A DNA stretch of 64,000 bases from Candidatus Omnitrophota bacterium (GCA_050250375.1 JBFWOS010000001.1:1086361-1150360), one strand, 5' to 3'; shown: positions 7,069 through 29,743, counted from the stretch's first letter. Numbers and translations: made by a program. Notes: generated by a model from the sequence alone, not told the origin.

Positions 7069-7770
7069 TCATTTCTTCCTGAAGATTAATTGAATAAAAT
7101 CAGCCATCGCTGTTCCCACCACTTTAATATTCGCCCCCGTTGGTACTCCTCCTTCACGGACAAAATGCTCAATCGGCACTTCTTTAATCCTGGCTTTTTT
7201 AACACGGGCATTAATAAACACATGTGTATAAAACGCTCCGGCGTGCGAGTCAATCCCTTCCGTTTCTAAGAACTGTTTATGGAACAATTTAAACCCGCAA
7301 TTGATATCTTTAGACTTAATCCCGAAGGCCGCTCCAACGCAAAAGGTATATAATTTCCCTAACATAATCCGGTGGACCGGATCGACCCGCTTTGAACGGT
7401 AACCGGCTATAATGTCATAGTCTCTGGTATAATTGAGCATCGGATCGATGGAGTTAATCTTAATCTGGCCGTCAGAATCCATAAGCAGAATCCATTCGTG
7501 CCTGGATCGCTCAATCCCCGAAATTAACGCCTTTCCATACCCTTTATTTACCGGAAGAGTGACCACCGTAACATGGTTATAAGATTTCCCCAAATCTTTT
7601 AAGATATCAGGTGAGCGGTCAGTACTGCCATCGTCTACCAGGATTATTTCATACCCGGTAATATTCTTGTGGGAATGAAGATGATTGTATACTTCTTCAA
7701 CGGTCTTTCGGATATTGGATTCTTCATTATAAACCGGAAGAATGACAGATAGGGTCACTTGATCGCTCAT
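7069..7770 (-). CDS. Glycosyltransferase family 2, polyprenol-phosphate sugar synthase-like (DPM1/ArnC-like)
   Basis: LSVILPVYNEESNI ... EIILVDDGSTDRS (DxD-type GT-A fold). 233 aa, soluble. 4-nt overlap with the downstream radical SAM gene. Confidence 0.75.
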   Translation of the reverse strand: MSDQVTLSVILPVYNEESNIRKTVEEVYNHLHSHKNITGYEIILVDDGSTDRSPDILKDLGKSYNHVTVVTLPVNKGYGKALISGIERSRHEWILLMDSDGQIKINSIDPMLNYTRDYDIIAGYRSKRVDPVHRIMLGKLYTFCVGAAFGIKSKDINCGFKLFHKQFLETEGIDSHAGAFYTHVFINARVKKARIKEVPIEHFVREGGVPTGANIKVVGTAMADFIQLIFRKK

Positions 7771-9065: not shown

Positions 9066-9068
9066 AGT

Positions 9069-10286: not shown

Positions 10287-10290
10287 GATC

Positions 10291-10656
10291 TTACTTAAAC
10301 CATAATATGACCGGAAAAATTACGCTAATCCAGATCATCAAAAATATTGTTAGATTGAAATTTCTGTATATCATCCCGGAGAATTTCGGAGAAACGGAAA
10401 AAAACCTCCCGGCGATCTTGCACCGGTATAAAGGAATAAACGGCTTCTTATGAATAAGGTTCAGATTCGCCCGGATAACGACCATAAGAAAATTTTTCGT
10501 CCGTCTGGCCGTTGGAACGACAAAACTGAATAAATAAAAAAAGGGCAGCACAACAGCCGACGCAACCAGCATCGGCACAGACAGTGTCAGCAAACCGAAC
10601 AAATTCGGCCCCTTATCTTCCATACTATAACCGCAACAACCTGTTTCACCAATCAT
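10291..10656 (-). CDS. Hypothetical small membrane protein (two predicted TM segments)
   Basis: ORF fills the gap between the cysteine desulfurase and the PP-loop gene. Hydrophobic stretches LFGLLTLSVPMLVASAVVLPFFYLF and LTIFLMIWISVIFPVILWF. No recognisable family. Confidence 0.3.
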   Translation of the reverse strand: MIGETGCCGYSMEDKGPNLFGLLTLSVPMLVASAVVLPFFYLFSFVVPTARRTKNFLMVVIRANLNLIHKKPFIPLYRCKIAGRFFSVSPKFSGMIYRNFNLTIFLMIWISVIFPVILWFK

Positions 10657-10660
10657 AAGA

Positions 10661-11515
10661 TTACCTTTCGATCAGTTTATACAATCTGCTTTCCGGGCCT
10701 TTTTCCACAAACTGATCCAGCTCCCGGGTAAAAGTCGCGATCTTGTCCTTATAAAAGACAAGAGTCGCTTGCTGATATTCATCATAAGTATGATCCGCCA
10801 GGTACAACCATTTTACAAAAATATTAAAAAGAATAAACTGAAAACAGCGCGGCTGCATTTTACGGTCCAACGCGGTGCCTTTGACATTTTCAGACGGCAT
10901 CAGACCGAGTTCATAAAGCTTCCGCCCGGTCGTTTGTGTCTGCGTCGCTGTATTACAAGAAGTCTTGTTGTCCTGCGTAAAAAATCGCTCCAATCTGAGA
11001 CGGTCAGTAAATTCCAGATCCTGCGGGCCATCATATTTAAAGACCGGATTGGTGTAAGTAATCCCAAAACGGGCGTACATGTCCCCGTATTCATTAATGA
11101 TTGTAGCCATCTGGTCGGGAAAAAGGTGCATCCCCTGATTCGCGCCGTCACAGACATTGGGTATTTGGTTCTCGAGGCAAAAGATCGCGGTACGCACATG
11201 CATGGCCAGCTTGCATAATCCGCAAATAGTCAGCAGAAAAAAGCCATGTTTTTTAATATTGCTCAAATATCGTTCGTAAAACACATACCGTGTCAGTTTC
11301 TCTACCTTGATGATATGAAACTCAAATTTATTCTGACCGTATTTATCCTGCAGTTTTTTGACATTAATCATCGGATTGGTGACCGAAGAAAACGCAAACC
11401 GGTCGTAGGTGATCAAATGGATCTTGTCGTATTTTTCGGCCATTAACGCGGCCGTTAATGTCGAATCTGTCCCTCCGGAAAATAATGTCGCTGTTTCATT
11501 TCGTCTCATAAACAA
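10661..11515 (-). CDS. PP-loop ATP pyrophosphatase superfamily protein with CxxC...C cluster (TtcA/TtuA-like thiolation or LarE/QueC-like)
   Basis: N-terminal SGGTDST (SGGxDS PP-loop) within the first 20 aa. CGLC at ~100 and an isolated Cys at ~123. 284 aa. Confidence 0.65.
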   Translation of the reverse strand: MFMRRNETATLFSGGTDSTLTAALMAEKYDKIHLITYDRFAFSSVTNPMINVKKLQDKYGQNKFEFHIIKVEKLTRYVFYERYLSNIKKHGFFLLTICGLCKLAMHVRTAIFCLENQIPNVCDGANQGMHLFPDQMATIINEYGDMYARFGITYTNPVFKYDGPQDLEFTDRLRLERFFTQDNKTSCNTATQTQTTGRKLYELGLMPSENVKGTALDRKMQPRCFQFILFNIFVKWLYLADHTYDEYQQATLVFYKDKIATFTRELDQFVEKGPESRLYKLIER

Positions 11516-11696
11516 CCTGCTCCTGTTTTGCTTTCTCCAGCTCTTTCAGAATGAACTTCAAAATAACGATATACGAAAGGTAAATGAACTGGGTGATCCA
11601 CCCCAGAATTTCAATGTAGACACACCTCATCTTCCAGGGCATGATCAGTCCAAAACCGCATAAGAGTATCGCCAAAATTTTCCTGATCGTCTTCAT
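11496..11696 (-). CDS. Hypothetical small membrane protein
   Basis: 66-aa ORF with one long hydrophobic stretch, wedged between the PP-loop gene and a radical SAM gene. Overlaps the PP-loop start by 20 nt. Confidence 0.3.
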   Translation of the reverse strand: MKTIRKILAILLCGFGLIMPWKMRCVYIEILGWITQFIYLSYIVILKFILKELEKAKQEQVVYETK

Positions 11697-11701
11697 TTAT
11701 T

Positions 11702-13195
11702 TTATCCGCTGGCGGCCATAAAAGATTCTTTCTCCTGTTTACCCGTCTGTCCCTCCGTTACAGACTGCAGGATATACGCTTGTATGATCAATCCCAAAGC
11801 GTTCATTAAATTTTGGGCGTATTTCCACTTATCCGGATACTTTCTAAATCCCCGCCTGATACGGCTCCATTTGAAATAAAAACGCCGCTGTGCCTTTAAA
11901 ATCATCCGGTTTAAATCCTCAGGCGACACTTCCGCTTGTGAACGTTTAACCGAATAATAAGCGATATCTTTAATCTGTTCAAAGATTTTCCGGTTGTCGG
12001 CCGATTCCTTAAAACCGGATTCGTAAATTTTATTAACGTCGTCATAATCAGTCGCTTTAAAAAACGAAGCCACATCTAATTCAGAGTTGACGGCAAAATC
12101 GATGGTCCGGTTAATCTCTTCTTCCGATTCGGATAAATGCCCAAGCATAAAATACCCGCCGGTAATGATCCCTCTCTCTGAAGTCTTGGCAATCATCTCG
12201 TTCACCTGTTGGATATTCAGGTTCTTTCTAAAGGCCTTCTGCAATCGGGAAGATGCGGACTCGATCCCGTAAACTAATTTATAGGTTCCAGCCTGTTTCA
12301 ATAAATCCAGCAGTTCTTCCGTCATAATATCTGCCCTGACGCCATGAGGAAAGGCAAGACTGATGTTTAATCCGGCCTCAATGATCAACCGGCTGATCTT
12401 TTTAGCCCGTTCATTGTCATAGTTAAAAACGGCATCATAAATATGAAATTCTTTCGCCTCGAATCGGGTATGGAGATATTTTATTTCTTCGACCACATGT
12501 TCAGGGGAGCGGGCGAGAAATTTCTTTCCATAAGTTTCACGGCAAAACGTGCACTTAAAAGGACACCCCCGGGATGTAAGGATAGGAATATAAAAATCTT
12601 CCTTAAGCGCGCCGTTCCAATTGGAATACCGGGCATACTCTTTCACGTCGATTAGATCCCAGGCGAACGGGATTATATTGAACGCATCCAAATTTTCCGG
12701 ATATTCACGCGGGGATGTAGTCACAGTCCGATCGTCGTTCTTGTAGACCAATCCCGAAATATTTTGAAAGCCTCCCTTTTGGTTTCCCAAAACACCGATT
12801 AATTCTCCCACGGTCAGTTCAGGCTCCCCAACTACCACAAAATCAATATGCCGATCCTCACAAAGATATTGACTGGAAAATGTGGCCAACTGTCCAAACA
12901 CAACAACTTTAACCCAGGCCTTCCAACTCTTGGATAAAGCCGCCAGCCGATGGACCAGACCAGCCTCCCACGACAACGCGTAAAACACGACCACATCCGG
13001 ATCAAAATTCTCTATTTCCTTCCTGACATCATTCTCGGCCATATCGCCTATGCCGGTGTCCGTCACCTTGAACTCATACTTGTCCGGGAATCTTTCCTGG
13101 ATATGAGAAACGACATACAGAATCTCCAGAGGAGGGATCGGACCGCCCGTACCGACCGTAATATGCGTTCTAATTAAATGGATCTTCTTAATCAA
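11702..13195 (-). CDS. B12-binding domain radical SAM protein
   Basis: LTSRGCPFKCTFCRETYG motif. N-terminal Rossmann-like B12-binding region. Confidence 0.8.
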   Translation of the reverse strand: MIKKIHLIRTHITVGTGGPIPPLEILYVVSHIQERFPDKYEFKVTDTGIGDMAENDVRKEIENFDPDVVVFYALSWEAGLVHRLAALSKSWKAWVKVVVFGQLATFSSQYLCEDRHIDFVVVGEPELTVGELIGVLGNQKGGFQNISGLVYKNDDRTVTTSPREYPENLDAFNIIPFAWDLIDVKEYARYSNWNGALKEDFYIPILTSRGCPFKCTFCRETYGKKFLARSPEHVVEEIKYLHTRFEAKEFHIYDAVFNYDNERAKKISRLIIEAGLNISLAFPHGVRADIMTEELLDLLKQAGTYKLVYGIESASSRLQKAFRKNLNIQQVNEMIAKTSERGIITGGYFMLGHLSESEEEINRTIDFAVNSELDVASFFKATDYDDVNKIYESGFKESADNRKIFEQIKDIAYYSVKRSQAEVSPEDLNRMILKAQRRFYFKWSRIRRGFRKYPDKWKYAQNLMNALGLIIQAYILQSVTEGQTGKQEKESFMAASG

Positions 13196-13207
13196 CAGCT
13201 TGTCCTT

Positions 13208-14671
13208 TCACATCTGAAAAACATTTTCTTTTTTCAATACAGCATAAATAGTCTCGGACATAATCTTATGCCCTTCATTCGTGCAGTGGTCGTCATCGAA
13301 AAAATATTTGCTCTTTGGTTCCAGCCCTTTAAAAGCCGCCTGGTGATCAATCACCGGCAGATGATACTCATCGGCAATCTTCCGGAGAACCTTATTGGCC
13401 ATCATATAGTCTGTCGGGTATAACTGGACAAACAACCGGATATTTTTTTTCTGACATGTCACCGCAACGCTCTTTAAATCATCATAAATCCATTGTTCAA
13501 TTCCAGAGTCCCATTTTTGTTTGTCTTTATAAATATTCAGGTTATTTGTAAAATTTTTACTCAGGGACAGTAACGGATTTTCCTCCTTCATAGTCATCAA
13601 TTTCTGATAGATATCTCGAGAGTCGTAATAACTTTGCAATTCATATAACTTATTCAACTCTGAAAAAAAATAGTCGGCATCAGGATCAACCGCAATCGCC
13701 CGAAGATAATGATCAATCGCCTTGTTATAGTGCAATTTTTTCTTGTGCCAATTCGCCAACTCAAAATTATAATAGGCCAGACCATCATACACCTGTTCCG
13801 ACTGTTGATTCATTTGATACGTTTTTTGTAACAAATCCTCAGCTTTATCAATATTATCCGTCTTATAATAAAAATGAACCAGAGCCAACGCCCCTTCAAT
13901 CGGACTGACCTGTTTGTTTTTCAAAGTTTCCTCTAATAACTCAATTCCCTTTTGCGATTCTCCTGTGTTAAACAAATGCCAGGCTTGTTCAAGATAATTA
14001 TATTCTTGAGGGGTCTTGATCCCTTCCCAATGCTCAAGATGCCCCATGTAATTATCATGCCTGGTAAAAATACTCCGCGTTGGTTTGAGATTCCTGAGCA
14101 TTAATTTCTTTTTCTGAAATTCTATGCCGTCACTTTGATCAACAGCCCAACTGATCCTGATAAACCGGGCCATTTTGACAACACGCAGTTCAAAAAACCA
14201 ATTCTTTAAGGATGACCATTTACTTTTTTTTGCGTATGCCTCATACGCCCAAGGATTAAAACGATTGGTAGCCCCCGCCAGAAGTAAGACGACTTTAGGA
14301 TGATATTTCGAAATCATGGCCGGAATCCGCTGAACCAGTTCATGAGTGTTCAGTTCGCAAATGCCCTGATTGTGTATCTTTACATGGTTGATCTGATTTC
14401 GTTGAAACAATTCTCTTAAATGCGAGGTATAGGTTTCGTGGGCTTCAACCATTCCTCCATGCGTGAATGAATCCCCAACGGCGATAATATCGGTAACATG
14501 CCCCACGCTCTCCGCGGCTGACTCCGTTTCATCCGTACGGTATTCTTCATCGTATTCATAATAGATTTTACCCACCACCCGAAGTCCAACTTCAAGGATA
14601 GTAAGGAAAAAAATAAAGCTGAACACACTCAATAGGATTTTTACGAATAATGGCGTTTTAATTTTCGACAT
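13208..14671 (-). CDS. TM-anchored SGNH/GDSL hydrolase with inserted TPR domain (paralog 2)
   Basis: N-terminal TM. IIAVGDSFTHGG (GDS block I), LLAGATNRF (block III), TPR-like middle region, DDDHCTNEGH (DxxH block V). Confidence 0.65.
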   Translation of the reverse strand: MSKIKTPLFVKILLSVFSFIFFLTILEVGLRVVGKIYYEYDEEYRTDETESAAESVGHVTDIIAVGDSFTHGGMVEAHETYTSHLRELFQRNQINHVKIHNQGICELNTHELVQRIPAMISKYHPKVVLLLAGATNRFNPWAYEAYAKKSKWSSLKNWFFELRVVKMARFIRISWAVDQSDGIEFQKKKLMLRNLKPTRSIFTRHDNYMGHLEHWEGIKTPQEYNYLEQAWHLFNTGESQKGIELLEETLKNKQVSPIEGALALVHFYYKTDNIDKAEDLLQKTYQMNQQSEQVYDGLAYYNFELANWHKKKLHYNKAIDHYLRAIAVDPDADYFFSELNKLYELQSYYDSRDIYQKLMTMKEENPLLSLSKNFTNNLNIYKDKQKWDSGIEQWIYDDLKSVAVTCQKKNIRLFVQLYPTDYMMANKVLRKIADEYHLPVIDHQAAFKGLEPKSKYFFDDDHCTNEGHKIMSETIYAVLKKENVFQM

Positions 14672-14695
14672 AAAAGCCTTTCCTTAGATTTTATT

Positions 14696-14908
14696 TTAAA
14701 ACAAGGCGTAAATGGCCGGTAAAATAGACGAATTCCCAGCCAAATTTACAAAAATACTCAAAAAGGCCAATACAAACAACAAAGGCAAAAGCCACCATTT
14801 TTTATGTTCCTTGATCATTAAAAAAAGCTCAATCAATAAATCTTTGTTTGAACTGATTTTTGATTTTTTTCGTTTTGGTTTTAGGTCGTTTTTCTTTTCT
14901 TCGTTCAT
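14696..14908 (-). CDS. DUF5989-like small membrane protein
   Basis: 70 aa. ...KEHKKWWLLPLLFVLAFLSIFVNLAGNSSILPAIYALF resembles the small KKxWLxP...APFIYTLF family often found next to polysaccharide-modifying genes. Family assignment is from memory. Confidence 0.4.
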   Translation of the reverse strand: MNEEKKNDLKPKRKKSKISSNKDLLIELFLMIKEHKKWWLLPLLFVLAFLSIFVNLAGNSSILPAIYALF

Positions 14909-14936
14909 AATTTCCTGGTAAAGCCTAGTGTATTAT

Positions 14937-16220
14937 TCAACTTATTTTATTGAAGAATTTATTTTCAATCAAAACCTTATATATTGATTGGCTGATAATG
15001 GCATGCCCCAATTTATTCGGATGGATGGTGTCATGCTCAGGATCAAGAAACAAGTACTCATTACTTTTTTGAAAATAAGCGGAAAACTCATCAACAATAT
15101 CCACCAAAACTAACTGTTCTTCTCCGGCAATTTCCTGCATTATAATATTGTATTGTTTAGCCAGGGCTTTGCATTCATAAAGCTCCATGAGAACCGTCTT
15201 TTTAAAATAATTTTCGGCATCCGTTTTTTTGTTTAATTTCAAACTCAACTGTCCCAGATAATAATAAGCCCGGGCAGAATTCGGGTTTAATTCCAAAGCC
15301 GTTTTAAGACCCGCCAAAGCCCCCTCATAATCCTGTAGATTCGTTCTGCGGACAACTTGGTTGATTTTTTCATCAGCTTGCTTTTGGATTTCAGGCGAAA
15401 CATCTTCCGCTGACGGTAAATTCACCGGCATTTTTAACAGGACAACAGTGATGCCATTTTCTTTGGCCGTCTTGATTAAAGACTTCAGATTGTTCCGGTA
15501 ATCCAGGGCCGAAACTCTGCGTTGATTAACATATTCCCCGCTTCCGCGCTGACCAAAATACTGCAGTGACAATGCTTGCGATTGAAGGATAAATTTCTTA
15601 TAAGCAGTAAAAAATTTACTTCGATCTAAAAAATTTTCAATCGCGACCAATACGTCATTTTTAAGGCCTAACTCTTTATCACTCTTCCCATGGTTACGGT
15701 AAAAGCGGTATTTATCGACATCATTAATCACATATGCCACCGTAATTATATCCGGCGCAAGCGGCAGGATTTTTTCTTTAAAAAACCGTAGCCCCTGAAA
15801 TGAGCTGTAACCAATCTGTCCGGCATTAATGACCTCAATATTTGTACGGGTAAAAGTCTTACGCAGTGATTCTTCAAGCTGTTTGGCATAAACTTCATTT
15901 TGATCTACGCCCCAGCCGAACGTCGGTGATGCCCCCAGACAAACAATACGCACCTGTCCGTTCTTTTTTCCGAACGGACGATCACGCAGACCGAGTGCAT
16001 TTGTTCTTACCCGGGCTCCTTCAAAGACTATGTCCAGATGCGGTTTTTGTATCCAGAATAATCCGGTATCCTGCTGCAAAACGCTCCGGATCCTATCAAG
16101 ACGAGTTGGAGTCCCGGCCAGCCAATAGCCCGCCCCTTCGCCTAAGCATAAAAGGACCAGGAAAAAAATCAGCCCAATGAATGGGCCTCGACATTTATAC
16201 CATATTGAATTGTGTGTCAT
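14937..16220 (-). CDS. TM-anchored SGNH/GDSL hydrolase with inserted TPR domain (paralog 3)
   Basis: RIVCLGASPTFGWG (block I, Ser present), VAYVINDV (block III), TPR-like region (ARAYYYLGQLSLKLNK...), DPEHDTIHPNKLGH (block V). Confidence 0.6.
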   Translation of the reverse strand: MTHNSIWYKCRGPFIGLIFFLVLLCLGEGAGYWLAGTPTRLDRIRSVLQQDTGLFWIQKPHLDIVFEGARVRTNALGLRDRPFGKKNGQVRIVCLGASPTFGWGVDQNEVYAKQLEESLRKTFTRTNIEVINAGQIGYSSFQGLRFFKEKILPLAPDIITVAYVINDVDKYRFYRNHGKSDKELGLKNDVLVAIENFLDRSKFFTAYKKFILQSQALSLQYFGQRGSGEYVNQRRVSALDYRNNLKSLIKTAKENGITVVLLKMPVNLPSAEDVSPEIQKQADEKINQVVRRTNLQDYEGALAGLKTALELNPNSARAYYYLGQLSLKLNKKTDAENYFKKTVLMELYECKALAKQYNIIMQEIAGEEQLVLVDIVDEFSAYFQKSNEYLFLDPEHDTIHPNKLGHAIISQSIYKVLIENKFFNKIS

Positions 16221-16223
16221 AAG

Positions 16224-17627
16224 CTATTTAATATACAGCATGCCTTTCGATAACCGATAAAACACATCCAGATTATTAATATAAAATGAAAAATATTTGT
16301 ACATGTGGCTGATAAAAAATTTGGGATTCAAAAATATCTTTTTATAAAAAGCGGCCCGGATTTCGGATAATTTCTTGGAATCCAGAGCGCTGAAATTCTT
16401 CCGGGGGATATCATAATGAAACATTTCCATAATTTCAGTATCATCCACCTGAAGTTTAAGCTGTTCATAACTCGTTGAACCCGGGTATGGACTGAAAAAA
16501 TGGATCTGCATAATATCAGGTTTCAATTCTTTGACAAGGGTAAAGGTTTCCTGAATTTCTTGTTCTGTTTCCGTCGGACTTCCAATGATCAGCAGCGCAT
16601 GGCTGGCGATCCCCAATTCTTTTGTGTAGTCAAAAACCTTTTTGGCCTGGCTGTTCCAGTCAATCTTTTTAAATGATTTAGTCAGCGATTGTACAATCCG
16701 GCTGGAACCTGATTCAACGCCGAACCGCAACAATATGCACCCGGCTTCTTTCATCGTCTTTAAAAGTTCATAATCCACGTTGTCAATGCGTGAGTGCGCC
16801 AACCATTTAATATCCACCGAACGGCGTTTGAGTTCAGCACATAAATTCTGGACATGCTGTCTGGATATCGTCAACAGATCGTCATCAAAACTGATCATAT
16901 TAATTCCTTGAGCCTGAAGCTGTTCAATTTCGTCCACGATGTTTTTAGCCGACCGCAACCGGGCTTTCGCTCCGTAACTTTCACGGGTCACCGGAGAACA
17001 AAAGGTGCATTTATACGGACACCCCCGGGAAGAAAGGATGTGCCCCCAATGAAGTTTCTTGGAAAGCTTGACCGGGTAAATAAACCGGTAATCCTTAATT
17101 TCCTCCTCGGTGTATTCTGGGAACGGAAGACTATCGAGGTCCGTCACTAAAAAATTCGGCTGTTTGCCTTCTTTAAACTTTTTATAACGCTCTTTTTCCT
17201 CCGAATAAGTACTTTCCCCATGTTTAATCCGTTGAATCAAATTAAACACTTCAAATTCCGCTTCGCCGGACAGATAAATATCCAAATCCGACGGAATAAA
17301 CTTTGTTTCAATAGAACCGACCGCAATCGACAATACGTTAATTTTGTTTTTTAGTTCCGAATTAAACCATCGGAATTCCTTTAAAGTAGAAACATTTACT
17401 GAATAGACAACAATATCCGGCTTCCAATGACCTGCTCTAACCAACAACTCGGCATTCTCAATACGGCCGGTCATGGCATCAAACAATCTGACTTCTGCAA
17501 AATTTGATTTTACAATTAACGCCTGAATATACTTTAATGTATATGGAGGGGAACAGTGATTGGGATGTTTAATCCGCTTGCTGTTCGGAAGATTTAGTCG
17601 GACTAAGGCAACTTTGATATCAGACAC
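16224..17627 (-). CDS. B12-binding domain radical SAM protein
   Basis: LSSRGCPYKCTFCSPVTRESYG. Closely related to the 11702 and 28067 paralogs. Confidence 0.8.
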   Translation of the reverse strand: MSDIKVALVRLNLPNSKRIKHPNHCSPPYTLKYIQALIVKSNFAEVRLFDAMTGRIENAELLVRAGHWKPDIVVYSVNVSTLKEFRWFNSELKNKINVLSIAVGSIETKFIPSDLDIYLSGEAEFEVFNLIQRIKHGESTYSEEKERYKKFKEGKQPNFLVTDLDSLPFPEYTEEEIKDYRFIYPVKLSKKLHWGHILSSRGCPYKCTFCSPVTRESYGAKARLRSAKNIVDEIEQLQAQGINMISFDDDLLTISRQHVQNLCAELKRRSVDIKWLAHSRIDNVDYELLKTMKEAGCILLRFGVESGSSRIVQSLTKSFKKIDWNSQAKKVFDYTKELGIASHALLIIGSPTETEQEIQETFTLVKELKPDIMQIHFFSPYPGSTSYEQLKLQVDDTEIMEMFHYDIPRKNFSALDSKKLSEIRAAFYKKIFLNPKFFISHMYKYFSFYINNLDVFYRLSKGMLYIK

Positions 17628-17642: not shown

Positions 17643-19070
17643 TTATTGTCCATGGACAAAAACTAATCTCATCGACTTTTTAAACACAACCTTAAACTGG
17701 CTGAACGATTTAATTTCTTTCAGAATATTAATAAAAATTCTAGGCCGTGTATAAAATTTCCAGAACGCCTTCCTCTGAAGTTTAACCAAAGTTTCCCGCG
17801 GGATATTTTTTGGAGCGTATACGACACTGTTTATATAAAGCGAATCATACCAATTCTTGATTACTTTACCTTCCTGCTTGAGTTTATCGTACTCTATTAT
17901 CCCCGGGAAAGGCGAAAAATTGAAAAAATTAGCCCGGTCAATATTGAGACTGGCGGCAAAATTAATTGTTGCTTCAACATCTTCAATCGTTTCTTCCGGG
18001 TGACCCAGCATAAAAAATCCAGTCACACGAATTTTTGTTGTACTCTTGATAAGGTCAACCTTCTCTCGAATGGTCTCCAGAGAAACACATTTCTTGGTTA
18101 TCTTTAGCATTTTGGCCGTCCCCCACTCAATGCCGACACCGAAAGAATAACAACCCGCTTTTTCCATAAGCCTCAACAAATCCGCGTCCAACGTATCCAA
18201 CCGGATGCCGTTGGGACACGACCAATGGATTTTCAAATTATGATCAAGTAATCCGTGACAGAAATCTTCAACTAGTTTATGTTGCAACGTAAAATTGTCA
18301 TCTAATATATTGATTTCTTCGACGCCATATTTGTTCACAAGCAGTTGAATCTCATCCAGGATATTTTCGATGGAGCGTGTTCGCATTTTTTTGCCCGACA
18401 TACGTCCGGCGGCACAAAATGTGCATGGATATGGACATCCTCTGGTTGCGATAATCGGCGCGACTTTTTTCCTTTTTGAAAACACTCCGATCGGGGCCAA
18501 CGGATAATTATTCGGGCTCATGATATCCCACGGCGGATACGGCAGACTGTCCAAATCATCAATCATAACCCGTGGATTACAGATAATCTTGCCGTCTTTT
18601 TCCCGCCAGACAAGATTATCGACATCTTTTAGCCTGGCCGAATTAAGAGGGTCACTTTCCGTTTGAATGATATCCATCAATTGACAAATACCATGTTCTG
18701 CTTCGCCTCTGAACGAAAAATCAACAGAGGTTAATATCTCCAAAGTCTCTACCGGCTCAAGGATCGCATGCGGACCTCCAACAGCTGTAAATATATTTTT
18801 ATTAACTTCTTTGATTGCTTCCGTATACTTCTTGACGGCCCCGACGTAGGTCGTGAATAAATTAAATCCGATAAAATCATAACTTTTATCTATGATGTAC
18901 TCTTGAAAATGCGCAACATCAATCCTGTCCCTGACACAATCCAGTATTTCCACTTCATGCCCGGCTTTTATCAACGAAGCCGCCAAATAACCCAGACTGA
19001 TATTCGGGATAACGATGACATTAAATTTCTTTAGCGACCACGGATTGACTAACAATATTTTCATTATCAC
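17643..19070 (-). CDS. B12-binding domain radical SAM protein
   Basis: IATRGCPYPCTFCAAGRMSG. 4-nt overlap (ATGA) with the upstream SPASM gene, consistent with translational coupling. Confidence 0.8.
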   Translation of the reverse strand: MIMKILLVNPWSLKKFNVIVIPNISLGYLAASLIKAGHEVEILDCVRDRIDVAHFQEYIIDKSYDFIGFNLFTTYVGAVKKYTEAIKEVNKNIFTAVGGPHAILEPVETLEILTSVDFSFRGEAEHGICQLMDIIQTESDPLNSARLKDVDNLVWREKDGKIICNPRVMIDDLDSLPYPPWDIMSPNNYPLAPIGVFSKRKKVAPIIATRGCPYPCTFCAAGRMSGKKMRTRSIENILDEIQLLVNKYGVEEINILDDNFTLQHKLVEDFCHGLLDHNLKIHWSCPNGIRLDTLDADLLRLMEKAGCYSFGVGIEWGTAKMLKITKKCVSLETIREKVDLIKSTTKIRVTGFFMLGHPEETIEDVEATINFAASLNIDRANFFNFSPFPGIIEYDKLKQEGKVIKNWYDSLYINSVVYAPKNIPRETLVKLQRKAFWKFYTRPRIFINILKEIKSFSQFKVVFKKSMRLVFVHGQ

Positions 19071-20152
19071 ACCCCAATTCTGTTTTTATAGGTCGGATGA
19101 TCGTGGATGAAAACCGGCAAATTTTCTACTCTGTCCAATGGATTGATATATTGATCAATGAAATTCTTATCCAAAGCGGCGATGCATGTTTTCTTTCGCT
19201 CACTAACCAATTTATGTGCCTGCAGTCTATCCCATATCTGTTCTAAACTTTCGTTACGGATATTGCCGTAAGAAATCTGAATGAACGCGCAGGGAATAAC
19301 ATGACCGAATGCCGTTATATAAATAATCTCTTTGCCGCACGGGCAACCATCTCCCAGAAAATTAACTTGTCCGGCCCAGCGGGCATGGGATGTCCTGACG
19401 ATTTTATGGAACGCTTCTTTGTTCTTTTCTGTCAGCAAAATATTCTCTTTCCCCCGCCATTCCCCGGATTTTGAGGCAGGATTAACTGTAATCGGCACAT
19501 TCAATTGTTCGGCAAACTTGATCACTTTCATTAAACCGTCATTTTCTAAATTCTGATTGGTGGCTACGGTACTAAGCATGAGTTCAATGCCGGATTCCCT
19601 AATCCATGGAATAGCCTGCATGATTTTCTCATAACATCCCTTAATTCCACGACTCTCATCGTGTTCTTTATGATCAGCGCTGTCCAGGCTGATCTGAACA
19701 ACATCCAGACCGGCTTCTTTTAATTCAAGAACTTTCTTTTTCGTTAACAGAACCCCATTGGTCGTGACGGCAACCAGCGATCTCGATTTTTTCGCAAAGC
19801 GAATAGCATCACATAAATGATGACACATCAGAGGCTCTCCGCCGATAAACTCAAAAGTAAATGCTCCCAATTTGATGGATTGAGTGATAATACTTTTGAC
19901 TTCCTCTAAACTTAATTGCGGGCTCTGGTCATTCTCAAGTGTCGTGGCAAAACAAAATTTACACTTGGCGTTACAACCCGCGATGATCGCAATATCAACT
20001 TTGCGCAAGACTTTCTTTTTTAGCACAAGTAAATCAAAATAATCCTTGGCTATCCGCGGCAAGACTACATAGCTTTTTGTGAGGATCCTACTGTGCTTTA
20101 GAATGTTTTTGAACTTGCTCACCGTTAATAACCTCTTTCGGAATTTGTTCAA
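19067..20152 (-). CDS. Radical SAM/SPASM (or twitch) domain protein, paralog A
   Basis: DIAIIAGCNAKCKFCFA (CxxxCxxC) after a ~45-aa N-terminal extension. C-terminal Cys-rich auxiliary-cluster region (GDGCPCGKE...CAF). 361 aa. Confidence 0.7.
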   Translation of the reverse strand: MNKFRKRLLTVSKFKNILKHSRILTKSYVVLPRIAKDYFDLLVLKKKVLRKVDIAIIAGCNAKCKFCFATTLENDQSPQLSLEEVKSIITQSIKLGAFTFEFIGGEPLMCHHLCDAIRFAKKSRSLVAVTTNGVLLTKKKVLELKEAGLDVVQISLDSADHKEHDESRGIKGCYEKIMQAIPWIRESGIELMLSTVATNQNLENDGLMKVIKFAEQLNVPITVNPASKSGEWRGKENILLTEKNKEAFHKIVRTSHARWAGQVNFLGDGCPCGKEIIYITAFGHVIPCAFIQISYGNIRNESLEQIWDRLQAHKLVSERKKTCIAALDKNFIDQYINPLDRVENLPVFIHDHPTYKNRIGV

Positions 20153-21245
20153 CGGGCATCGGTTTGATCCCTTCGGATGAATAGATATGTTTATTTATTT
20201 CAATAATTTTCTTGTCCCAGGCAGCACGGCATGATTTTTTCTGGTTTCCATCACAAACAATCTCATTTTTCATCATACGGTTCCATACCGTGTTCAACTT
20301 TTCCTTGTTGAGATTTCCATAAGAAATCGGCATCAACCCGCAAGGCTGCACTTCCGCATAAGGGCTGATCAAAATTTTCTCAGTTCCGCACGGACAAAAT
20401 TCATTCGTGTAATTGGTGCTGCCGGCCCAGCGGGTATGTGTTTGTTTCCGGATTTCCTGATAAACATTCCATTCTTCCGCATTCAATTCACTGTCTTGTT
20501 GTTTCGACCAGCCGCCGACCCGGGCGGAACAATTCACGTTTATCTTTAAATCAAGATCTTTAGCCAGCTGAACGGCCTGCCAAATCTCGCCGTTCGCAAT
20601 GTTTTTCTTGGTCATAATTGTGCTCAGAATGACCTTAATCCCGGCTTTTTTAAGCAAGGCAATCCCGTTGATTGCCCGCTCATAACACCCTTTTAATTTT
20701 CTAATTTCATCGATCTCATCGGGATTTATCGCCCCGCCCAAGTCAACCTGAATGACGTCCAGCCCGGATTTTTTAAGCTTTGTAACAACGTCTTGGGACA
20801 ATAAATACCCGTTGGTTGACATACCCGCAATCCCATGATTTTTTTTCACACACCGGATGGCGTCATAAATGTGCTTATAAACGAGCGGCTCGCCCCCCAA
20901 AAAGTTAAAAACAACGGCCCCCATTTGAGCCGCCTGTTCAATATAAGACTTTATTTCATCAATACCCATCGGTCTTTGGTGCTGCCGGCTCTCCCGCCCC
21001 TGCGCATTCCGCATGTCAACGGTGGCATCAATACAGCAATGCTCACATTTTGCGTTGCAGGCGGCTGTTATAGAAATATCAACGGCCCGGATAACTCTTT
21101 GCTTGAGGACAAAAATCTTGTAATAATTCTTGATCAAGCGGAATATTAGAAATGGATTTTTTACAATAAAACCAAGATAAAATTTGTAACTCTTAAGTTT
21201 TGTCTTGAAGGCTGATACTTTGGGCTGGTCTTTAACACTGTTCAT
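20088..21245 (-). CDS. Radical SAM/SPASM (or twitch) domain protein, paralog B
   Basis: DISITAACNAKCEHCC. Its N-terminal extension is homologous to that of paralog A (VSAFKTKLKSYKF...KIFVLKQRVIRAVD vs VSKFKNILKHSRI...DLLVLKKKVLRKVD). C-terminal Cys cluster (EFCPCGTE...CGL). Confidence 0.7.
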   Translation of the reverse strand: MNSVKDQPKVSAFKTKLKSYKFYLGFIVKNPFLIFRLIKNYYKIFVLKQRVIRAVDISITAACNAKCEHCCIDATVDMRNAQGRESRQHQRPMGIDEIKSYIEQAAQMGAVVFNFLGGEPLVYKHIYDAIRCVKKNHGIAGMSTNGYLLSQDVVTKLKKSGLDVIQVDLGGAINPDEIDEIRKLKGCYERAINGIALLKKAGIKVILSTIMTKKNIANGEIWQAVQLAKDLDLKINVNCSARVGGWSKQQDSELNAEEWNVYQEIRKQTHTRWAGSTNYTNEFCPCGTEKILISPYAEVQPCGLMPISYGNLNKEKLNTVWNRMMKNEIVCDGNQKKSCRAAWDKKIIEINKHIYSSEGIKPMPVEQIPKEVINGEQVQKHSKAQ

Positions 21246-21485
21246 CGTGCCTCCGGGTTTGATAGGTAGTATAAAAAAACTGACTTTACGTGCCTGTATG
21301 TCCAGTAGACTATTCTATAATTATGATTTTTATAATAGTTATATAAAGTATACCCTTCGAGGTATTCAAAAACAAGCAAAAAATCTCTGGAACTTTTGTC
21401 TGTTTTTATAAAATTGGAAACCTTATTTGAATCTTAACCGCATGCCAATAAATGAGATTTGACTTGTTTGGTCCTGATTGATTAA
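21246..21485 (-). promoter_or_regulatory. AT-rich intergenic region upstream of the 21245->4475 gene string (candidate operon promoter)
   Basis: 240-nt gap, the only sizeable one between 29575 and 4475. Downstream genes have 0-15 nt gaps or overlaps. No boxes verified. Confidence 0.3.
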
Positions 21486-22886
21486 TTAGAGTTTATTTAA
21501 GATCGTTTCTGCGATATTACGGGCTAATATTCCGTTTCCTTTTGGGGTGCAATGCCCGAAATCCCCGGCAAAATTATCAATAAAGATAGCATCATAACCC
21601 TCTTTTTGGACAGCGGCATTAAACACCATTTCATTATCGACAAAAATTATGTTGTTGTCGTGACCAACCAGAGTCTTTAATACGGCGACCTCCCGCCTAG
21701 GATACTGAACCAGAACTAATTTAAGATGGTTTTTGAAGACTTTTTCTTTAAGGATTTTATAATTATGTTTTGTAACAGGATTAAAGGAGCCCGCTTTCGC
21801 CTGCTTAGATTTTATCAAATACTCATTGGCCAACCGTAGATTATCTTGTGTCTCATAAAAGAGTTTCAAGGCTTTGTAAGAATCATGGGTTTCTTGCCTT
21901 TTGGCGCTGTTGGTAAATAACATTTCCGCTTTCTGGGTATCCCCGTCTTTTAAATAGCTCCACCCCAAAGACATGTCAATGTCATTATTGTCGTTGTCTA
22001 ATGATTTAGCCTGAACCAGTACATTAATCGCATCTTTCCACTGTTGATGAATGATATATATCTGGCCTAAGGTAATATACAAGTTCGAATTATTCGGATC
22101 CTTGCTTATCCCTTCTTTCATGACGATTTCAGATTCATTCAGTTTTCCGGCTAAGGCTAAGCATAGACCTAAATTAACATACGTATCTGCATCCCCCGGA
22201 AAATCTTTGAGAGTCTGCCGAAACAATTTCTCCGCATCATTAAATTTTCCTTCAGCAATCATCCCCCAGCCTGTTTCGAAATGAGGGCCATAACCTTCGG
22301 ATACATCCTCAATAATTCTCCGGTAAATAAATTCCAGTTCCTTGGATAAATTCCGGCCGCGGTTCTTGTTTATTTTATTTTGAACGGACAAATACAATAA
22401 ATGGAATAATTTATAAACCCTTAAATCTTTCGCCGCACCTTTGAAATACACTCCGATGTCATTCTTAAATTCAACGCGATCATCGGCAAAATCATTTATC
22501 CCCATCATAACGATAACCATGTCCGGTTTATAACTATTAAGGTACTCGTCCAATTTTGTCAGGATATAAGATGTTGTAATTCCCGGAATACCTTTGTTAA
22601 TCGTTCGGAATTGGATATCCGGTCTTTTCTCATTCAGAATTTTTTCGAGCTGTTTCGGATAGGAAAATTCTCCCCCCAAAGCTGTTGACGATTCCCCCAA
22701 ACATAAAATTTTATATGTACCCCCCTCACTCAGATTTTTCTTATTCTGAAGATCCTGGGAAAAAATGTATACAACTCCTCCCAAACGTAAACCGACCTCA
22801 AGCAGCACGAATAAAAATATCAGACTGCCGACAATCAACAGAAATTTTTGTCTCATGTCTTTACTCCCGTCCCCCGCGGATGACAA
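21486..22886 (-). CDS. TM-anchored SGNH/GDSL hydrolase with inserted TPR domain (paralog 4)
   Basis: YKILCLGESSTALGG, MMGINDF, TPR-like region, FAGDFGHCT (DxxH). Closest paralog of 5682-7058. Confidence 0.7.
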   Translation of the reverse strand: MSSAGDGSKDMRQKFLLIVGSLIFLFVLLEVGLRLGGVVYIFSQDLQNKKNLSEGGTYKILCLGESSTALGGEFSYPKQLEKILNEKRPDIQFRTINKGIPGITTSYILTKLDEYLNSYKPDMVIVMMGINDFADDRVEFKNDIGVYFKGAAKDLRVYKLFHLLYLSVQNKINKNRGRNLSKELEFIYRRIIEDVSEGYGPHFETGWGMIAEGKFNDAEKLFRQTLKDFPGDADTYVNLGLCLALAGKLNESEIVMKEGISKDPNNSNLYITLGQIYIIHQQWKDAINVLVQAKSLDNDNNDIDMSLGWSYLKDGDTQKAEMLFTNSAKRQETHDSYKALKLFYETQDNLRLANEYLIKSKQAKAGSFNPVTKHNYKILKEKVFKNHLKLVLVQYPRREVAVLKTLVGHDNNIIFVDNEMVFNAAVQKEGYDAIFIDNFAGDFGHCTPKGNGILARNIAETILNKL

Positions 22887-24209: not shown

Positions 24210-25961
24210 TTACCAGCCGCTGGTGGGATTATAAAAAGAAAAATCGTTGAGCAGCCGCATATCCTGCCAAAAACTGTATATCAAAAACAATCCCACAATT
24301 ATTTTCAGGATTCTTTTAAACATTAACGGTTGCTGTTCAACATAAATCATCATGACAATCAACAACGGTGGAACTATCTGGGTCAAATGGTTCGTCTGTT
24401 TCCAGTCTACAATTGAAAAGAGGATTGCTCCGGAAAAAATCCAGGCGGCAAACAAAGAAACATATCGACCGGGAAATTTTATCAGACAAAAAATAAGAGT
24501 AAATACGGTTATGGGAAGATACGGGAATTCAAATTTAAATTCCAGCCATAGCCGTAAGAACCCGGGATAATCTTCAGCAAACAGGGTATTATGATGGAAG
24601 AGCCGATCAAACAGATGGACTTTCACATGCGATAGAATAAACGCATGATAATCAATCACCATCCCGTATACCCAGAACAGAACCGACCCCAGGGCAAATC
24701 CGATCGGTATAACTGATCGTTCCTTTAAACTTTTCAAAAACCCTTTCTCTTTCCTCTCTTTACGCGATTGGTACACTTGAATCAAGAACAGGGGCAAGAC
24801 CAAAACAACAATCTTCTGGTTGATCAAACCGGACAGGACTCCGGGAATATATTTCAGAAACTTCAGAGACCATTTTGAATTTTCCCATATCTCCGGACGG
24901 AAATATTGATAGGCCAGCACGACCATTAAACAATTCGTAAACGCCACATGCTCTGATAGACAGGATCTGACAAAGATGGCCGGGGTAAAAATATAGGCAT
25001 ATCCCCCGACAATTCCCAACAACCTGGACTGGGTTAAACCGGTGATCAACTTATACAAAATAAAGAAAACCAGAAGGCTCGCAAAAATATTGGATGCTCT
25101 CGCCGGGAATACATTCGGCCGGGAGAAAAAATGATTTTGGTCTTGCCAATTGATATATTCGATCAATCCCGTTTTTGTATAGGAATAATCAACCAGGTCA
25201 TTCCCGGACAGCTTCTTCAGCGTAAAATATTGCCCGTTAAAATTTCTTAAGTGAACTGTTTCACCCATAAATTCTGCCGTTGCTTCTTCCCCGGGAGACA
25301 ACTTAAGAACCTTTTCAGTCAGCACGGCTGAATCATAAAAATATTTATAATCATCCGTTTTATCCAGAAGAAATATGCTAAACGCGTTAAATAAATTTGT
25401 CATCGGCGGATGGGCAAAATAAAACGCCGACCCGATAAAATCATCACTAGTCAAATACGGTTTTAACTCATGAATCAAGCCATAGGCTGTCCCCTGATGC
25501 TCACCATCGAGGTCCAGTTTTTCCGGGATCGTCTTCATTCCCACAAAAATGCAGCTAAATATACAAACCAACGATAACCATAGGATGAGCGTTTCCTTGT
25601 AATCATAGCGAAACGTCTGAAAAACTTCCGCAGGGCGAGTTAGGATGATGCCGAGATTAACGATCATGCCCGTCAGCAGAAGAAAATGAACCGGCTTAGG
25701 GTTAATTCCGGCCGCCAAAAATCCGATTAGAATTATTGTCAGCACAGAGAAAGAAAAGACAAAAATAAAAAACACCAGAAAAACGCTGTCTTTGACATGT
25801 TTCTTTATCAGTCCGATCCAGGCCAGTCCGGGGACAATGTATATCACGGCGGTAACAACCAACGCTGATAAGAAATCACCCGCCTCTGTGTATAAAATCA
25901 AAATATTACTAAACAGGAACAAGTTACATAACAAGGCAATATGCCGGTTTCTGATAAACAT
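24210..25961 (-). CDS. Polytopic integral membrane protein (>=12 TM), possible GT-C-type glycosyltransferase or polymerase/ligase
   Basis: 583 aa, hydrophobic throughout, no soluble domain recognisable. Sits in the glycan locus. Confidence 0.35.
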   Translation of the reverse strand: MFIRNRHIALLCNLFLFSNILILYTEAGDFLSALVVTAVIYIVPGLAWIGLIKKHVKDSVFLVFFIFVFSFSVLTIILIGFLAAGINPKPVHFLLLTGMIVNLGIILTRPAEVFQTFRYDYKETLILWLSLVCIFSCIFVGMKTIPEKLDLDGEHQGTAYGLIHELKPYLTSDDFIGSAFYFAHPPMTNLFNAFSIFLLDKTDDYKYFYDSAVLTEKVLKLSPGEEATAEFMGETVHLRNFNGQYFTLKKLSGNDLVDYSYTKTGLIEYINWQDQNHFFSRPNVFPARASNIFASLLVFFILYKLITGLTQSRLLGIVGGYAYIFTPAIFVRSCLSEHVAFTNCLMVVLAYQYFRPEIWENSKWSLKFLKYIPGVLSGLINQKIVVLVLPLFLIQVYQSRKERKEKGFLKSLKERSVIPIGFALGSVLFWVYGMVIDYHAFILSHVKVHLFDRLFHHNTLFAEDYPGFLRLWLEFKFEFPYLPITVFTLIFCLIKFPGRYVSLFAAWIFSGAILFSIVDWKQTNHLTQIVPPLLIVMMIYVEQQPLMFKRILKIIVGLFLIYSFWQDMRLLNDFSFYNPTSGW

Positions 25962-25965
25962 AAGC

Positions 25966-26742
25966 TTAATAAATTTTCCTGATAATAAGGTTAGTCAAGC
26001 CGGGTGACAACCGGTTTAACAAATATAGCGGTATACACTTTTTTCCGATGACGACCATTTTTTTGTTCTTTTCAATGGCCGTCAGAATGGCCTGTGCAAC
26101 GGTGTCGGCACTGATCCCTGTTCTTTTATGTTGATACGGTTCATCACGGTACAAAACGTTTGGTTCGAATTCCGTTTCAACTTTCCCAGGACAGACCAAA
26201 ATAACCCGGATATTATCTTTCCTTGCATCTTCAGCCAGCGATTCGGTCAATCCGTTGACAGCAAACTTGGAAGACGAATACAATCCGCAATCATAAAATC
26301 CTTTGATTCCCGCCACCGAAGAAACATTCAGGATAACTCCTCCTCTCCGTTTCTTCATATATGGATAAACGGCACGGGTACAATACAATACTCCGTACAA
26401 ATTCGTAGCCAGCATGTCCCGATACAAATCCATCGGGCCCGTGATGATCGACCCCTTAAATCCCACACCGGCATTATTAATCAAGACATCCACTTGTCCG
26501 TATTTCCGGATCACTTGTTCCACCAAGTGCTGAACCTGATCTTCCTTCCCGACATCAGCCGGGATGACCATCGTATCACCACCGGTTAATTTACCTGCGA
26601 CAGCGTCAAGTTTATCTTTTCGGCGGGAAACAAGTACAACCCTGGCGCCTTTCTGGGATAACAACCCTGCACAGCTTTGTCCGATCCCCGAGGATGCACC
26701 TGTCACAATGACCACCTTGTTAGTAAAATCATATTTTTTCAT
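25966..26742 (-). CDS. Short-chain dehydrogenase/reductase (SDR) family oxidoreductase
   Basis: VVIVTGASSGIGQS (TGxxxGxG NAD(P)-binding motif). 258 aa. 4-nt overlap with the upstream DegT gene. Confidence 0.85.
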   Translation of the reverse strand: MKKYDFTNKVVIVTGASSGIGQSCAGLLSQKGARVVLVSRRKDKLDAVAGKLTGGDTMVIPADVGKEDQVQHLVEQVIRKYGQVDVLINNAGVGFKGSIITGPMDLYRDMLATNLYGVLYCTRAVYPYMKKRRGGVILNVSSVAGIKGFYDCGLYSSSKFAVNGLTESLAEDARKDNIRVILVCPGKVETEFEPNVLYRDEPYQHKRTGISADTVAQAILTAIEKNKKMVVIGKKCIPLYLLNRLSPGLTNLIIRKIY

Positions 26743-28055: not shown

Positions 28056-28066
28056 AACTTTTTAAG

Positions 28067-29575: not shown

Positions 29576-29743
29576 TCATAACCCTTTGGAAATGATAAAT
29601 TAAAGACACATACACTATTAGGCGCGGAACAAATAATATTCGCTAAGTCTTTTATTTTGAATACTTTTGCATTTCAATAATAACACATTATCCCGGTTAT
29701 TTCATCAAGATTTTTAGGACGGATGGTCCTTTCCACAAATCAA

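Follow-up and report, generated by a model that had tools for sequence, protein, structure and literature searches.

What would two paralogous radical S-adenosylmethionine (SAM) enzymes, encoded side by side and directly upstream of a B12-binding radical SAM gene, be doing in an envelope-glycan locus? The question arises in a 64,000-nucleotide (nt) stretch of DNA from a Candidatus Omnitrophota bacterium (GCA_050250375.1 JBFWOS010000001.1:1086361-1150360), which we analysed as a whole and refer to as the window. The two genes, on the minus strand like nearly all others in the window, are rSAM-A (20088..21245), which codes for a protein of 385 amino acids (aa) recognised from its open reading frame (ORF) and Pfam matches, and rSAM-B (19067..20122), which codes for 351 aa if read from GTG 20122. 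We find that their products belong to a large and widespread family of twitch-type radical SAM enzymes without a characterised member, and, on balance, we favour a role for them in the tailoring of sugars.

Both proteins are predicted to be active, cytoplasmic radical SAM enzymes, as judged from the CxxxCxxC and GGE motifs. The former lies at 21036..21059 in rSAM-A (C63, C67, C70) and at 19952..19975 in rSAM-B (C50, C54, C57 in the 351-aa numbering), in both cases on the minus strand and in invariant alignment columns; in the 361-aa numbering of the longest rSAM-B ORF, C60, C64, C67 and G104-G105-E106 are invariant in both lineages. In each protein, Pfam recovers Radical_SAM (83-85 bits), Fer4_12 and a weak, partial SPASM match, which spans the first half of that domain only.

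This partial match raises the issue of which auxiliary-cluster architecture follows the catalytic core. The SPASM domain is defined by seven cysteines in the arrangement CX9-15GX4C - gap - CX2CX5CX3C - gap - C, which house two auxiliary clusters, whereas the twitch domain is a truncated SPASM, namely a Cys-flanked beta-hairpin, then a helix followed by a Cys, with one auxiliary cluster (PMC6231123). The corresponding region of rSAM-B (19184..19345, minus strand) offers C260-x-C262, C278 (the second Cys of a CX12GX4C motif) and C313, placed by alignment, a HMMER comparison with SkfB and an AlphaFold2 (AF2) model; that of rSAM-A (20229..20396, minus strand) offers C284-x-C286, C302, C331 and C339, placed by alignment and AF2. 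The models have mean confidence (pLDDT) values of 86.8 for rSAM-B and 87.6 for rSAM-A, with a pTM of 0.88 each. In that of rSAM-B, the layout is C270, C272, strands 276-279 and 284-286, C288, helices 303-317 and C323 (361-aa numbering); in that of rSAM-A, a beta-hairpin (290-293, 298-300) lies between C286 and C302, and a helix (317-326) precedes C331 and C339. Because CX12GX4C and one later Cys are present and CX2CX5CX3C is missing, the latter from rSAM-A, rSAM-B and 146 of 147 family representatives, the C-terminal domain is a twitch and not a SPASM domain, with a single predicted auxiliary Fe-S cluster.

The ranking of structural neighbours by Foldseek is alike for both models: SkfB leads BlsE and MoaA, and these come ahead of SPASM enzymes, viperins, DesII and anSME, with TM scores of ~0.5-0.6. 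The PDB sequence matches are SkfB (2.7e-13), CteB, BlsE, viperins and MoaA, with BtrN recovered for the core alone. Scores against NCBIfam models stay far from the cut-offs for both proteins, the best being AhbD (109-124 bits versus 500), followed by NirJ2, MoaA and GeoRSP. An earlier note, made from the sequence alone, had called the pair SPASM enzymes with Cys-rich auxiliary regions and had proposed structure prediction to tell SPASM from twitch. Their identity as auxiliary-cluster radical SAM enzymes, outside any characterised family, is supported, and the AF2 models and Foldseek matches give the twitch layout; the SPASM label, on the other hand, falls with the absent second-cluster motif, and the richness in cysteine was overstated, there being four C-terminal Cys in rSAM-B and five in rSAM-A, three of them conserved family-wide. 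An alignment of 50 family sequences keeps C50, C54, C57, C260, C278 and, nearly always, C313 (351-aa numbering). To these the Omnitrophota clade adds a fourth auxiliary Cys, which makes up the CxC, and a core Cys, C163 in a 'GCY' motif (351-aa numbering); the extras of the rSAM-A lineage are a CX8C pair and a poorly modelled insert of 14 residues after the cluster motif.

The other feature common to the two proteins is their N-terminal extension, which comprises residues 1-62 of rSAM-A (21060..21245, minus strand; net charge +11; predicted helices 12-29 and 32-46) and residues 1-49 of the 351-aa form of rSAM-B (19976..20122, minus strand; net charge +9), the latter being basic and helical with the family pattern ...R...(N/D)Y(F/Y)...VL...V(L/I)R.VDI. 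When the segments before CxxxCxxC are aligned alone, they share 36% identity (E 1e-8). AF2 renders the extension as two or three helices, with pLDDT of about 80-95 and no beta-strands; being all-helical, it is not a recognition element (RRE), a winged helix with beta-strands, of the kind used by the maturases of peptides that are made by ribosomes and modified after translation (RiPPs).

How far does this architecture extend beyond the window? An exhaustive profile search of 1.84 billion cluster representatives recovered 1,580 of them (50% identity clusters) at E<1e-30 and more than 150 at E<1e-67, most of which aligned from the first positions of the profile; of the 147 representatives with the top scores, 126 align to a profile built from Omnitrophota sequences alone, beginning no later than position 20. 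Across the family representatives, the 45-residue stretch leading up to the cluster motif carries a net charge of +7 (median), and the region approximates to (K/R)KP.L..R...NYF...(V/L)L....LR.V(E/D).A.T..C...C..C. Members occur in both bacteria and archaea, for example, Aenigmatarchaeota. A scan of GTDB returned three close Omnitrophota species; its other 57 loci were weaker and mostly partial, and none of those re-scored held a full-length member with the extension. Thus, a predicted basic helical hairpin of ~45 aa is the signature of a large, widespread family without a characterised member, which can be defined on sequence grounds by this N-terminal hairpin, a core with CxxxCxxC and GGEP, and, at the C-terminus, a twitch domain with a single predicted auxiliary cluster. 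The earlier note had regarded the extension as unique to the pair and had proposed looking for it in other genomes. It is indeed homologous between the two proteins and strongly basic, but it is family-wide, being carried by the 126 representatives just mentioned and by 65 metagenomic loci (see below).

The margins of the family deserve mention in their own right. Three weaker members (P0206, P0214, P0226) showed no N-terminal match and have uninformative contexts. A sister subfamily of ~335-340 aa, scoring 210-260 bits (loci L097, L102, L117, L076, L147, L164 and others), is missing most of the N-terminal extension; its genes are almost always followed by one for an unannotated protein of ~253 aa, with genes for family 2 glycosyltransferases (GT2) and B12-binding radical SAM enzymes (B12-rSAMs) often nearby.

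Within the window, rSAM-A and rSAM-B are true paralogues, as the earlier note had held, with 36% identity across 356 aa (E 4e-85). rSAM-A starts at ATG 21245, with GGAGG 5-6 nt upstream. The longest ORF of rSAM-B spans 19067-20152 and opens at TTG 20152; however, all its homologues, one of them 100% identical (an Omnitrophota genome at NCBI), are 351-354 aa long with a first residue equivalent to GTG 20122, and the sequence AAAGAGG (20138-20132), within the coding sequence of rSAM-A, stands 9 nt upstream of that codon. From the homologue lengths and this Shine-Dalgarno-like sequence, we place the start of rSAM-B at GTG 20122. The 3' end of rSAM-A and the 5' end of rSAM-B therefore overlap by 35 nt (20088..20122, minus strand), with the Shine-Dalgarno sequence of rSAM-B just upstream of the overlap, and not by the 65 nt first reported: the genes do overlap, but the larger figure is an artefact of the longest ORF. 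Two homologous loci (L003 and L004) have an identical 35-nt overlap, whereas in two others (L001 and L002; 68% identical) the genes are separated by 232 nt, and so the overlap is incidental and not a conserved feature.

We rejected the possibility that tandem family genes are everywhere orthologues of an ancient A/B pair: A-then-B orthology was found in one metagenomic pair only (L118), the other tandem pairs consisting of a B-like gene and a third, divergent type of paralogue. The rSAM-A lineage is restricted to close Omnitrophota relatives. The pair is neither unique nor specially coupled, and is one instance of a large family.

The company kept by the family is best seen in metagenomes, where a hand-made degenerate DNA pattern for the twitch motif retrieved 116 loci, 65 of them with full-length members. 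Among the 37 non-redundant loci flanked by 3 kb or more, a B12-rSAM gene lies within 5 kb in 65%; the figures for other neighbours are 35% (another radical SAM gene), 32% (a class-I methyltransferase), 16% (a GT2) and 14% (a DegT aminotransferase), all of these being lower bounds, since neighbours were labelled by similarity to proteins of the window. Tandem family genes occur in 11 of the 27 assessable loci. Pfam analysis of 135 neighbour ORFs yielded Radical_SAM (45), B12-binding (26), methyltransferase (~12) and GT2 (8), together with Asn_synthase, DegT, PMT_2, YfhO and YdjC; the top 25 of these neighbour families include none for lipid synthesis and none for RiPPs. Across the 65 independent loci, no family of small ORFs is seen repeatedly next to family genes.

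The fusion partners of some family members are DegT (P0088, P0103, P0191), a GT2 resembling PgfS/ArnC (P0058), further radical SAM domains and, in at least eight proteins, class-I methyltransferases. One locus (L068) combines a family-DegT fusion with a second member of the family, one more DegT encoded on its own and two B12-rSAMs. In a marine locus (L005), the family gene is overlapped by 4 nt by a B12-rSAM gene, amid genes for an NTP-transferase, UDP-glucose dehydrogenase, cytidylyltransferase, epimerase, methyltransferase, GT4 and Wzx.

rSAM-A and rSAM-B themselves lie in an envelope-glycan locus that extends over roughly 35 kb (~4.4-38.3 kb) and includes a GT9, a 233-aa GT2, a NifS-like desulfurase, a PP-loop-like protein, five radical SAM proteins of the B12 class, four SGNH/GDSL-TPR proteins, one DUF5989 protein, a short-chain dehydrogenase/reductase (SDR), a DegT aminotransferase and six GT-C (PMT_2/YfhO-like) membrane proteins. 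The DegT-family sugar aminotransferase (26739-28055) and the adjoining SDR (25966-26742), both on the minus strand, are syntenic with the radical SAM block in related genomes, and the GT2 (7069..7770, minus strand) has as its best matches the polyprenyl-phosphate sugar synthases PgfS, ArnC, PpgS and AglJ, all below cut-offs. A GH94 gene (738-3434) lies just downstream of the locus. In the related Omnitrophota contigs L001-L004, the order GT-C/TPR, DegT, SDR, 580-aa membrane proteins, A, B, B12-rSAM, B12-rSAM, SGNH, DUF5989, SGNH, B12-rSAM is kept. Consistent with the earlier note, no sulfatase family was matched among the scanned window ORFs of at least 150 aa, and there are no heme or molybdopterin genes in the window.

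From the fold, the motifs, the breadth of the family, and its neighbourhoods and fusions, we infer a substrate class and a reaction type: with somewhat better than even confidence, we propose that rSAM-A and rSAM-B tailor sugars in an envelope-glycan pathway. The earlier note had left the choice between sugar oxidation or epimerisation and peptide crosslinking; a sugar is the better option, with the lack of an RRE, the lack of a recurrent small ORF and the glycan neighbours all counting against crosslinking. Mechanistically, a 5'-deoxyadenosyl radical would take a hydrogen from a carbon of a nucleotide- or polyprenyl-phosphate-linked sugar, and a two-electron oxidation of the carbinol might then yield a keto-sugar, the auxiliary cluster accepting an electron as in BtrN. 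The keto-sugar could next pass to DegT for amination, just as a DegT-family aminotransferase takes up the keto product of BtrN, and/or gain a C-linked methyl group from the neighbouring B12 enzymes, while the two paralogues might differ in the position that they attack or catalyse consecutive steps. For the basic hairpin, we envisage a place against the barrel, where it would touch the phosphates of the substrate or the surface of the membrane. The modified sugar could finally be carried on polyprenyl phosphate to the periplasm by an Arn/Pgf-like route, as suggested by the presence in the locus of a polyprenyl-phosphate-type GT2 and many GT-C enzymes. The precedent for the oxidative step is BtrN itself, the twitch radical SAM dehydrogenase by which butirosin biosynthesis oxidises the carbinol of an aminocyclitol (PMC9012708). 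BtrN-type dehydrogenation specifically, the chemistry that we favour, is offered as a tentative suggestion, which we see as possible rather than probable.

Several considerations weigh against this proposal. All the functional evidence for family members is guilt by association, none of them having a known substrate; the fused methyltransferase domains return generic UbiE/UbiG/MenG-like NCBIfam matches that say nothing of the substrate; and the neighbour annotation relied on crude ORF calls, with ORFs of <110 aa left out of the Pfam count. BtrN is a weak sequence match (E 1.8e-6) over query residues 47-162, that is, the core, and falls outside the Foldseek top 50 for both models. The family-wide three-Cys pattern is as much MoaA-like, with an open Fe site and redox-neutral chemistry, as it is four-Cys BtrN-like. 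The SDR beside DegT could supply a keto-sugar without the radical SAM enzymes. Lastly, the pairing of a SPASM enzyme with a B12-rSAM is known in lipid chemistry from Hbs/Hgm (bioRxiv 10.1101/2023.10.20.563219).

The same sugar substrate could equally be subject to non-oxidative chemistry, with rSAM-A and rSAM-B catalysing epimerisation, diol dehydration, deamination or C-C rearrangement on the model of NeoN/HygY, AprD4, DesII or MoaA, and with an open Fe site binding the substrate. The three auxiliary Cys conserved family-wide, as in MoaA, accord with this, as do the occurrence of DesII, viperins and MoaA among the structural neighbours and the syntenic SDR, whose combination with a radical SAM enzyme resembles the logic of AprD4/AprD3. 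C163 of the 'GCY' motif, conserved in the Omnitrophota clade, could donate a hydrogen atom, but it is not conserved across the wider family, and the fourth auxiliary Cys of the clade (CxC) is compatible with full ligation of the cluster. Such chemistry is, in our estimation, unlikely, if worth serious consideration. The main non-sugar rival is the modification, together with B12 methylases, of a membrane lipid or a polyprenyl chain, in the manner of the H-GDGT bridge synthase Hbs and the B12-rSAM methylase Hgm, which work on tetraether lipids; the basic amphipathic N-terminus would be a membrane anchor. Hbs, a SPASM enzyme resembling AhbD, has an N-terminal extension, is found in clusters with a B12-rSAM and has homologues in Omnitrophota (bioRxiv 10.1101/2023.10.20.563219); AhbD is also the best NCBIfam match of rSAM-A and rSAM-B, their nearest full-SPASM relatives (P0013, P0014, P0235; extensions of ~113-132 aa and 7-8 C-terminal Cys) look Hbs-like, GDGT-MAS is a weak PDB match, and the neighbourhood is rich in membrane proteins. 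Nevertheless, the extension in rSAM-A and rSAM-B is ~45 aa and not ~100 aa, their C-terminal domain is twitch and not SPASM, and the DegT and GT2 fusions, together with the NTP-transferase, UDP-glucose dehydrogenase, Wzx and GT4 neighbours, point to carbohydrate; with no lipid-synthesis Pfam among the top 25 neighbour families, we hold a lipid substrate to be distinctly unlikely.

A role in RiPP maturation would have the pair crosslink or epimerise peptides, such as the three Sec-signal Cys peptides encoded at 38356-39140, after the proteusin pattern, in which a radical SAM enzyme is joined by B12 C-methyltransferases and a methyltransferase. SkfB, SuiB, CteB and EpeE are indeed among the structural neighbours, small secreted Cys-containing peptides are present in the window, and B12-rSAM and class-I methyltransferase neighbours also occur in proteusin clusters. 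Against this, neither rSAM-A nor rSAM-B has a PqqD/RRE match in Pfam, and their ~45-aa extension is all-helical. Besides the want of a recurrent small ORF noted above, homologues of the secreted Cys peptides of the window were not found beside family genes in the 65 loci; these peptides lie 17 kb off, beyond GT-C and other genes, and the family is fused to DegT and GT2. Accordingly, we deem this role very improbable. Membership of a known maturase or cofactor family, be it anSME, AhbD/NirJ or MoaA, has in its favour that these provide the top NCBIfam and PDB sequence matches. However, the AhbD and NirJ2 scores are 4-5 times below cut-offs (for AhbD, the 109-124 bits versus 500 given above) and that of MoaA ~3 times below (87-92 versus 284), anSME, which is defined by a full two-cluster SPASM domain and a cognate sulfatase gene, is not among the 25 NCBIfam matches listed, and the missing second SPASM cluster motif is compounded by the lack of sulfatase, heme and molybdopterin genes in the window. 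The cut-offs and the absent motif effectively refute such membership, which we judge the least credible of these alternatives.

Returning to sugar tailoring, we also entertain a broader and more speculative notion: that the recurrent cassette of one or two of these N-hairpin twitch radical SAM enzymes and one or two B12-rSAMs, with or without DegT, a methyltransferase and a polyprenyl-phosphate GT2, might be an undescribed anaerobic route to heavily tailored envelope sugars (C-methylated, aminated or deoxygenated) on nucleotide or polyprenyl-phosphate carriers, common to Omnitrophota, DPANN archaea and other uncultured lineages, with the auxiliary cluster or the hairpin binding the substrate phosphate. 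Few twitch radical SAM enzymes have known sugar substrates, and nearly all of those come from antibiotic pathways; delimited here is a large, uncharacterised family with a sequence signature and a reproducible partnership with B12-rSAMs in glycan loci. Enzymologists thereby gain a defined target and the tractable hypothesis that envelope sugars are oxidised or rearranged anaerobically, without NAD, before being aminated and C-methylated, which may help explain the unusual cell surfaces of ultra-small uncultured bacteria such as Omnitrophota. No concept is overturned by this, and the function is one that we infer. The literature yielded nothing on DUF5989 or on a described cluster of radical SAM, B12 and glycan genes, and a recent Omnitrophota preprint contains no discussion of this locus.

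The B12 enzymes follow rSAM-B closely on the minus strand. The gene directly downstream (17643..19070) codes for a B12-binding radical SAM enzyme of 473 aa (from ATG 19064) or 475 aa (from GTG 19070), recognised by the Pfam domains B12-binding and Radical_SAM, for which no NCBIfam model scores above cut-off. At the junction, GGGGTGTGATAATGAAA (likewise given as GTGTGATAATG), the stop codon of rSAM-B is TGA 19069-19067, and the B12 gene starts at one of two codons: GTG 19070, which would overlap rSAM-B by 4 nt (GTGA), or ATG 19064, the start called in homologues, which would leave 2 nt between the genes; the two are thus as tightly packed as the earlier note had it, though not through the ATGA overlap that it described. 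A second B12-class radical SAM enzyme (16224..17627, minus strand), identified from Pfam and NCBIfam, lies 15 nt further downstream. Its B12-binding domain was undetected by Pfam in this copy, but its L001 and L002 homologues have a PF02310 match. HpnJ and the AprD4 diol-dehydratase family are among the NCBIfam models that it matches, with scores that in every case fall far short of the cut-offs.

The remainder of this tightly packed unit (10661..16220, minus strand), the gene order of which is kept in L001-L004, encodes an SGNH/TPR protein (14937-16220), DUF5989 (14696-14908), another SGNH/TPR protein (13208-14671), a B12-rSAM (11702-13195), a conserved 66-aa hydrophobic, probably membrane, ORF that is also present in L003 (11496-11696) and a PP-loop-like protein of 284 aa with an SGGTDS motif (10661-11515), all on the same strand. 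Spacers of no more than 35 nt run on through at least nine further genes, and a terminator-like hairpin is found at 10426-10409, after the 284-aa gene. Upstream of rSAM-A is an AT-rich intergenic region of 240 nt (21246..21485, minus strand) with one weak sigma-70-like site at 21347-21320; the promoter scan was not above background (43 sites versus 31.7 +/- 5.9 expected). rSAM-A appears to open a long operon, the 240-nt gap being the likely start of the transcription unit, with weak promoter evidence.

Some further components of the locus, all on the minus strand, merit separate comment. The 66-aa ORF, the PP-loop 284-aa protein, the NifS-like desulfurase (9069-10286) and a B12-class radical SAM protein (7767-9065) make up a possible sulfur-insertion module (7767-11696), which might serve thio-sugar chemistry. 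The four paralogous SGNH/GDSL proteins (5682-7058, 13208-14671, 14937-16220, 21486-22886) have a hydrophobic N-terminus and a domain split by TPR repeats. One of them flanks the DUF5989 mini-protein (14696-14908), and DUF5989 also occurs beside a family gene in an unrelated locus (L072). Six consecutive large polytopic membrane proteins are encoded at 24210-38284; four have a PMT_2 or YfhO (GT-C) match and two do not, one is fused to TPR repeats, and the region shows a marked positive AT skew.

Beyond these, again on the minus strand, the three tandem paralogous small ORFs at 38356-39140 (76, 86 and 87 aa) have an N-terminal signal or anchor ending in (V/E)(N/E/Q)AQ and mature parts of ~41-51 aa with 3-5 Cys, and match no Pfam family. 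Next to them, at 39220-46170, is a row of three genes for unusual surface proteins: a 447-aa Cys-rich protein with a Flp-type prepilin-like N-terminus (G-QSII-EY, then a hydrophobic stretch), a 1,420-aa protein with Sushi-like repeats, encoded in a GC-richer stretch (0.49), and a third protein that bears the intramolecular-chaperone domain Peptidase_S74. A pair of genes at 52947-55165, of no relation to the glycan locus, joins a lysine-2,3-aminomutase-like radical SAM gene directly, by a 1-nt overlap, to a D-Ala-D-Ala-ligase-type ATP-grasp gene.

When set against named systems, the family shares something with each. It occurs beside a B12-rSAM gene and in Omnitrophota, as does Hbs of the Hbs/Hgm pair, likewise an auxiliary-cluster radical SAM enzyme, of AhbD-like type, that is extended at its N-terminus; however, Hbs, compared here by description only, has an extension of ~100 aa (COG4001) and a complete SPASM domain, with 7-8 Cys, and is found together with tes or mss, whereas the extensions of rSAM-A and rSAM-B measure 49-62 aa and their C-terminal Cys number 4-5. 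MoaA, the GTP 3',8-cyclase and one of the top three structural matches, is likewise a twitch enzyme with a three-Cys auxiliary cluster, basic N-terminal residues before the motif and a sugar-phosphate substrate, but rSAM-A and rSAM-B stay well below its cut-off, have a longer hairpin and no molybdopterin context. SkfB, a twitch sactisynthase (PDB 6efn), is the best match both in sequence (2.7e-13) and in structure (Foldseek 1.5e-15, TM ~0.6), and the HMMER alignment equates C288 of rSAM-B with its Cys351 and C323 with its Cys387 (361-aa numbering; SkfB ligands from PMC6231123); yet SkfB has an N-terminal RRE and a precursor peptide, where rSAM-A and rSAM-B have a short helical hairpin and no peptide partner.

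The remaining comparisons concern sugars and their kin. DesII and BlsE, both structural neighbours, exemplify radical tailoring of NDP-sugars or sugar nucleosides in deoxy- and amino-sugar pathways, and DesII comes between the aminotransferase DesI and an N-methyltransferase in its pathway; at 11-18% identity and with no family N-terminal motif, they nonetheless belong to different families. BtrN (2-deoxy-scyllo-inosamine dehydrogenase), at ~250-270 aa, has no N-terminal extension and has four Cys ligands as opposed to the three conserved across the rSAM-A/B family. Even so, it joins a radical SAM core to a twitch domain with one auxiliary [4Fe-4S] cluster and acts on a carbohydrate-like carbinol, the handling of its keto product by a DegT-family enzyme would match the DegT fusions and DegT neighbours of the family, and the four Cys available in the rSAM-B clade (C260, C262, C278 and C313, 351-aa numbering) would be compatible with the fully Cys-ligated, low-potential cluster of BtrN-type dehydrogenases.

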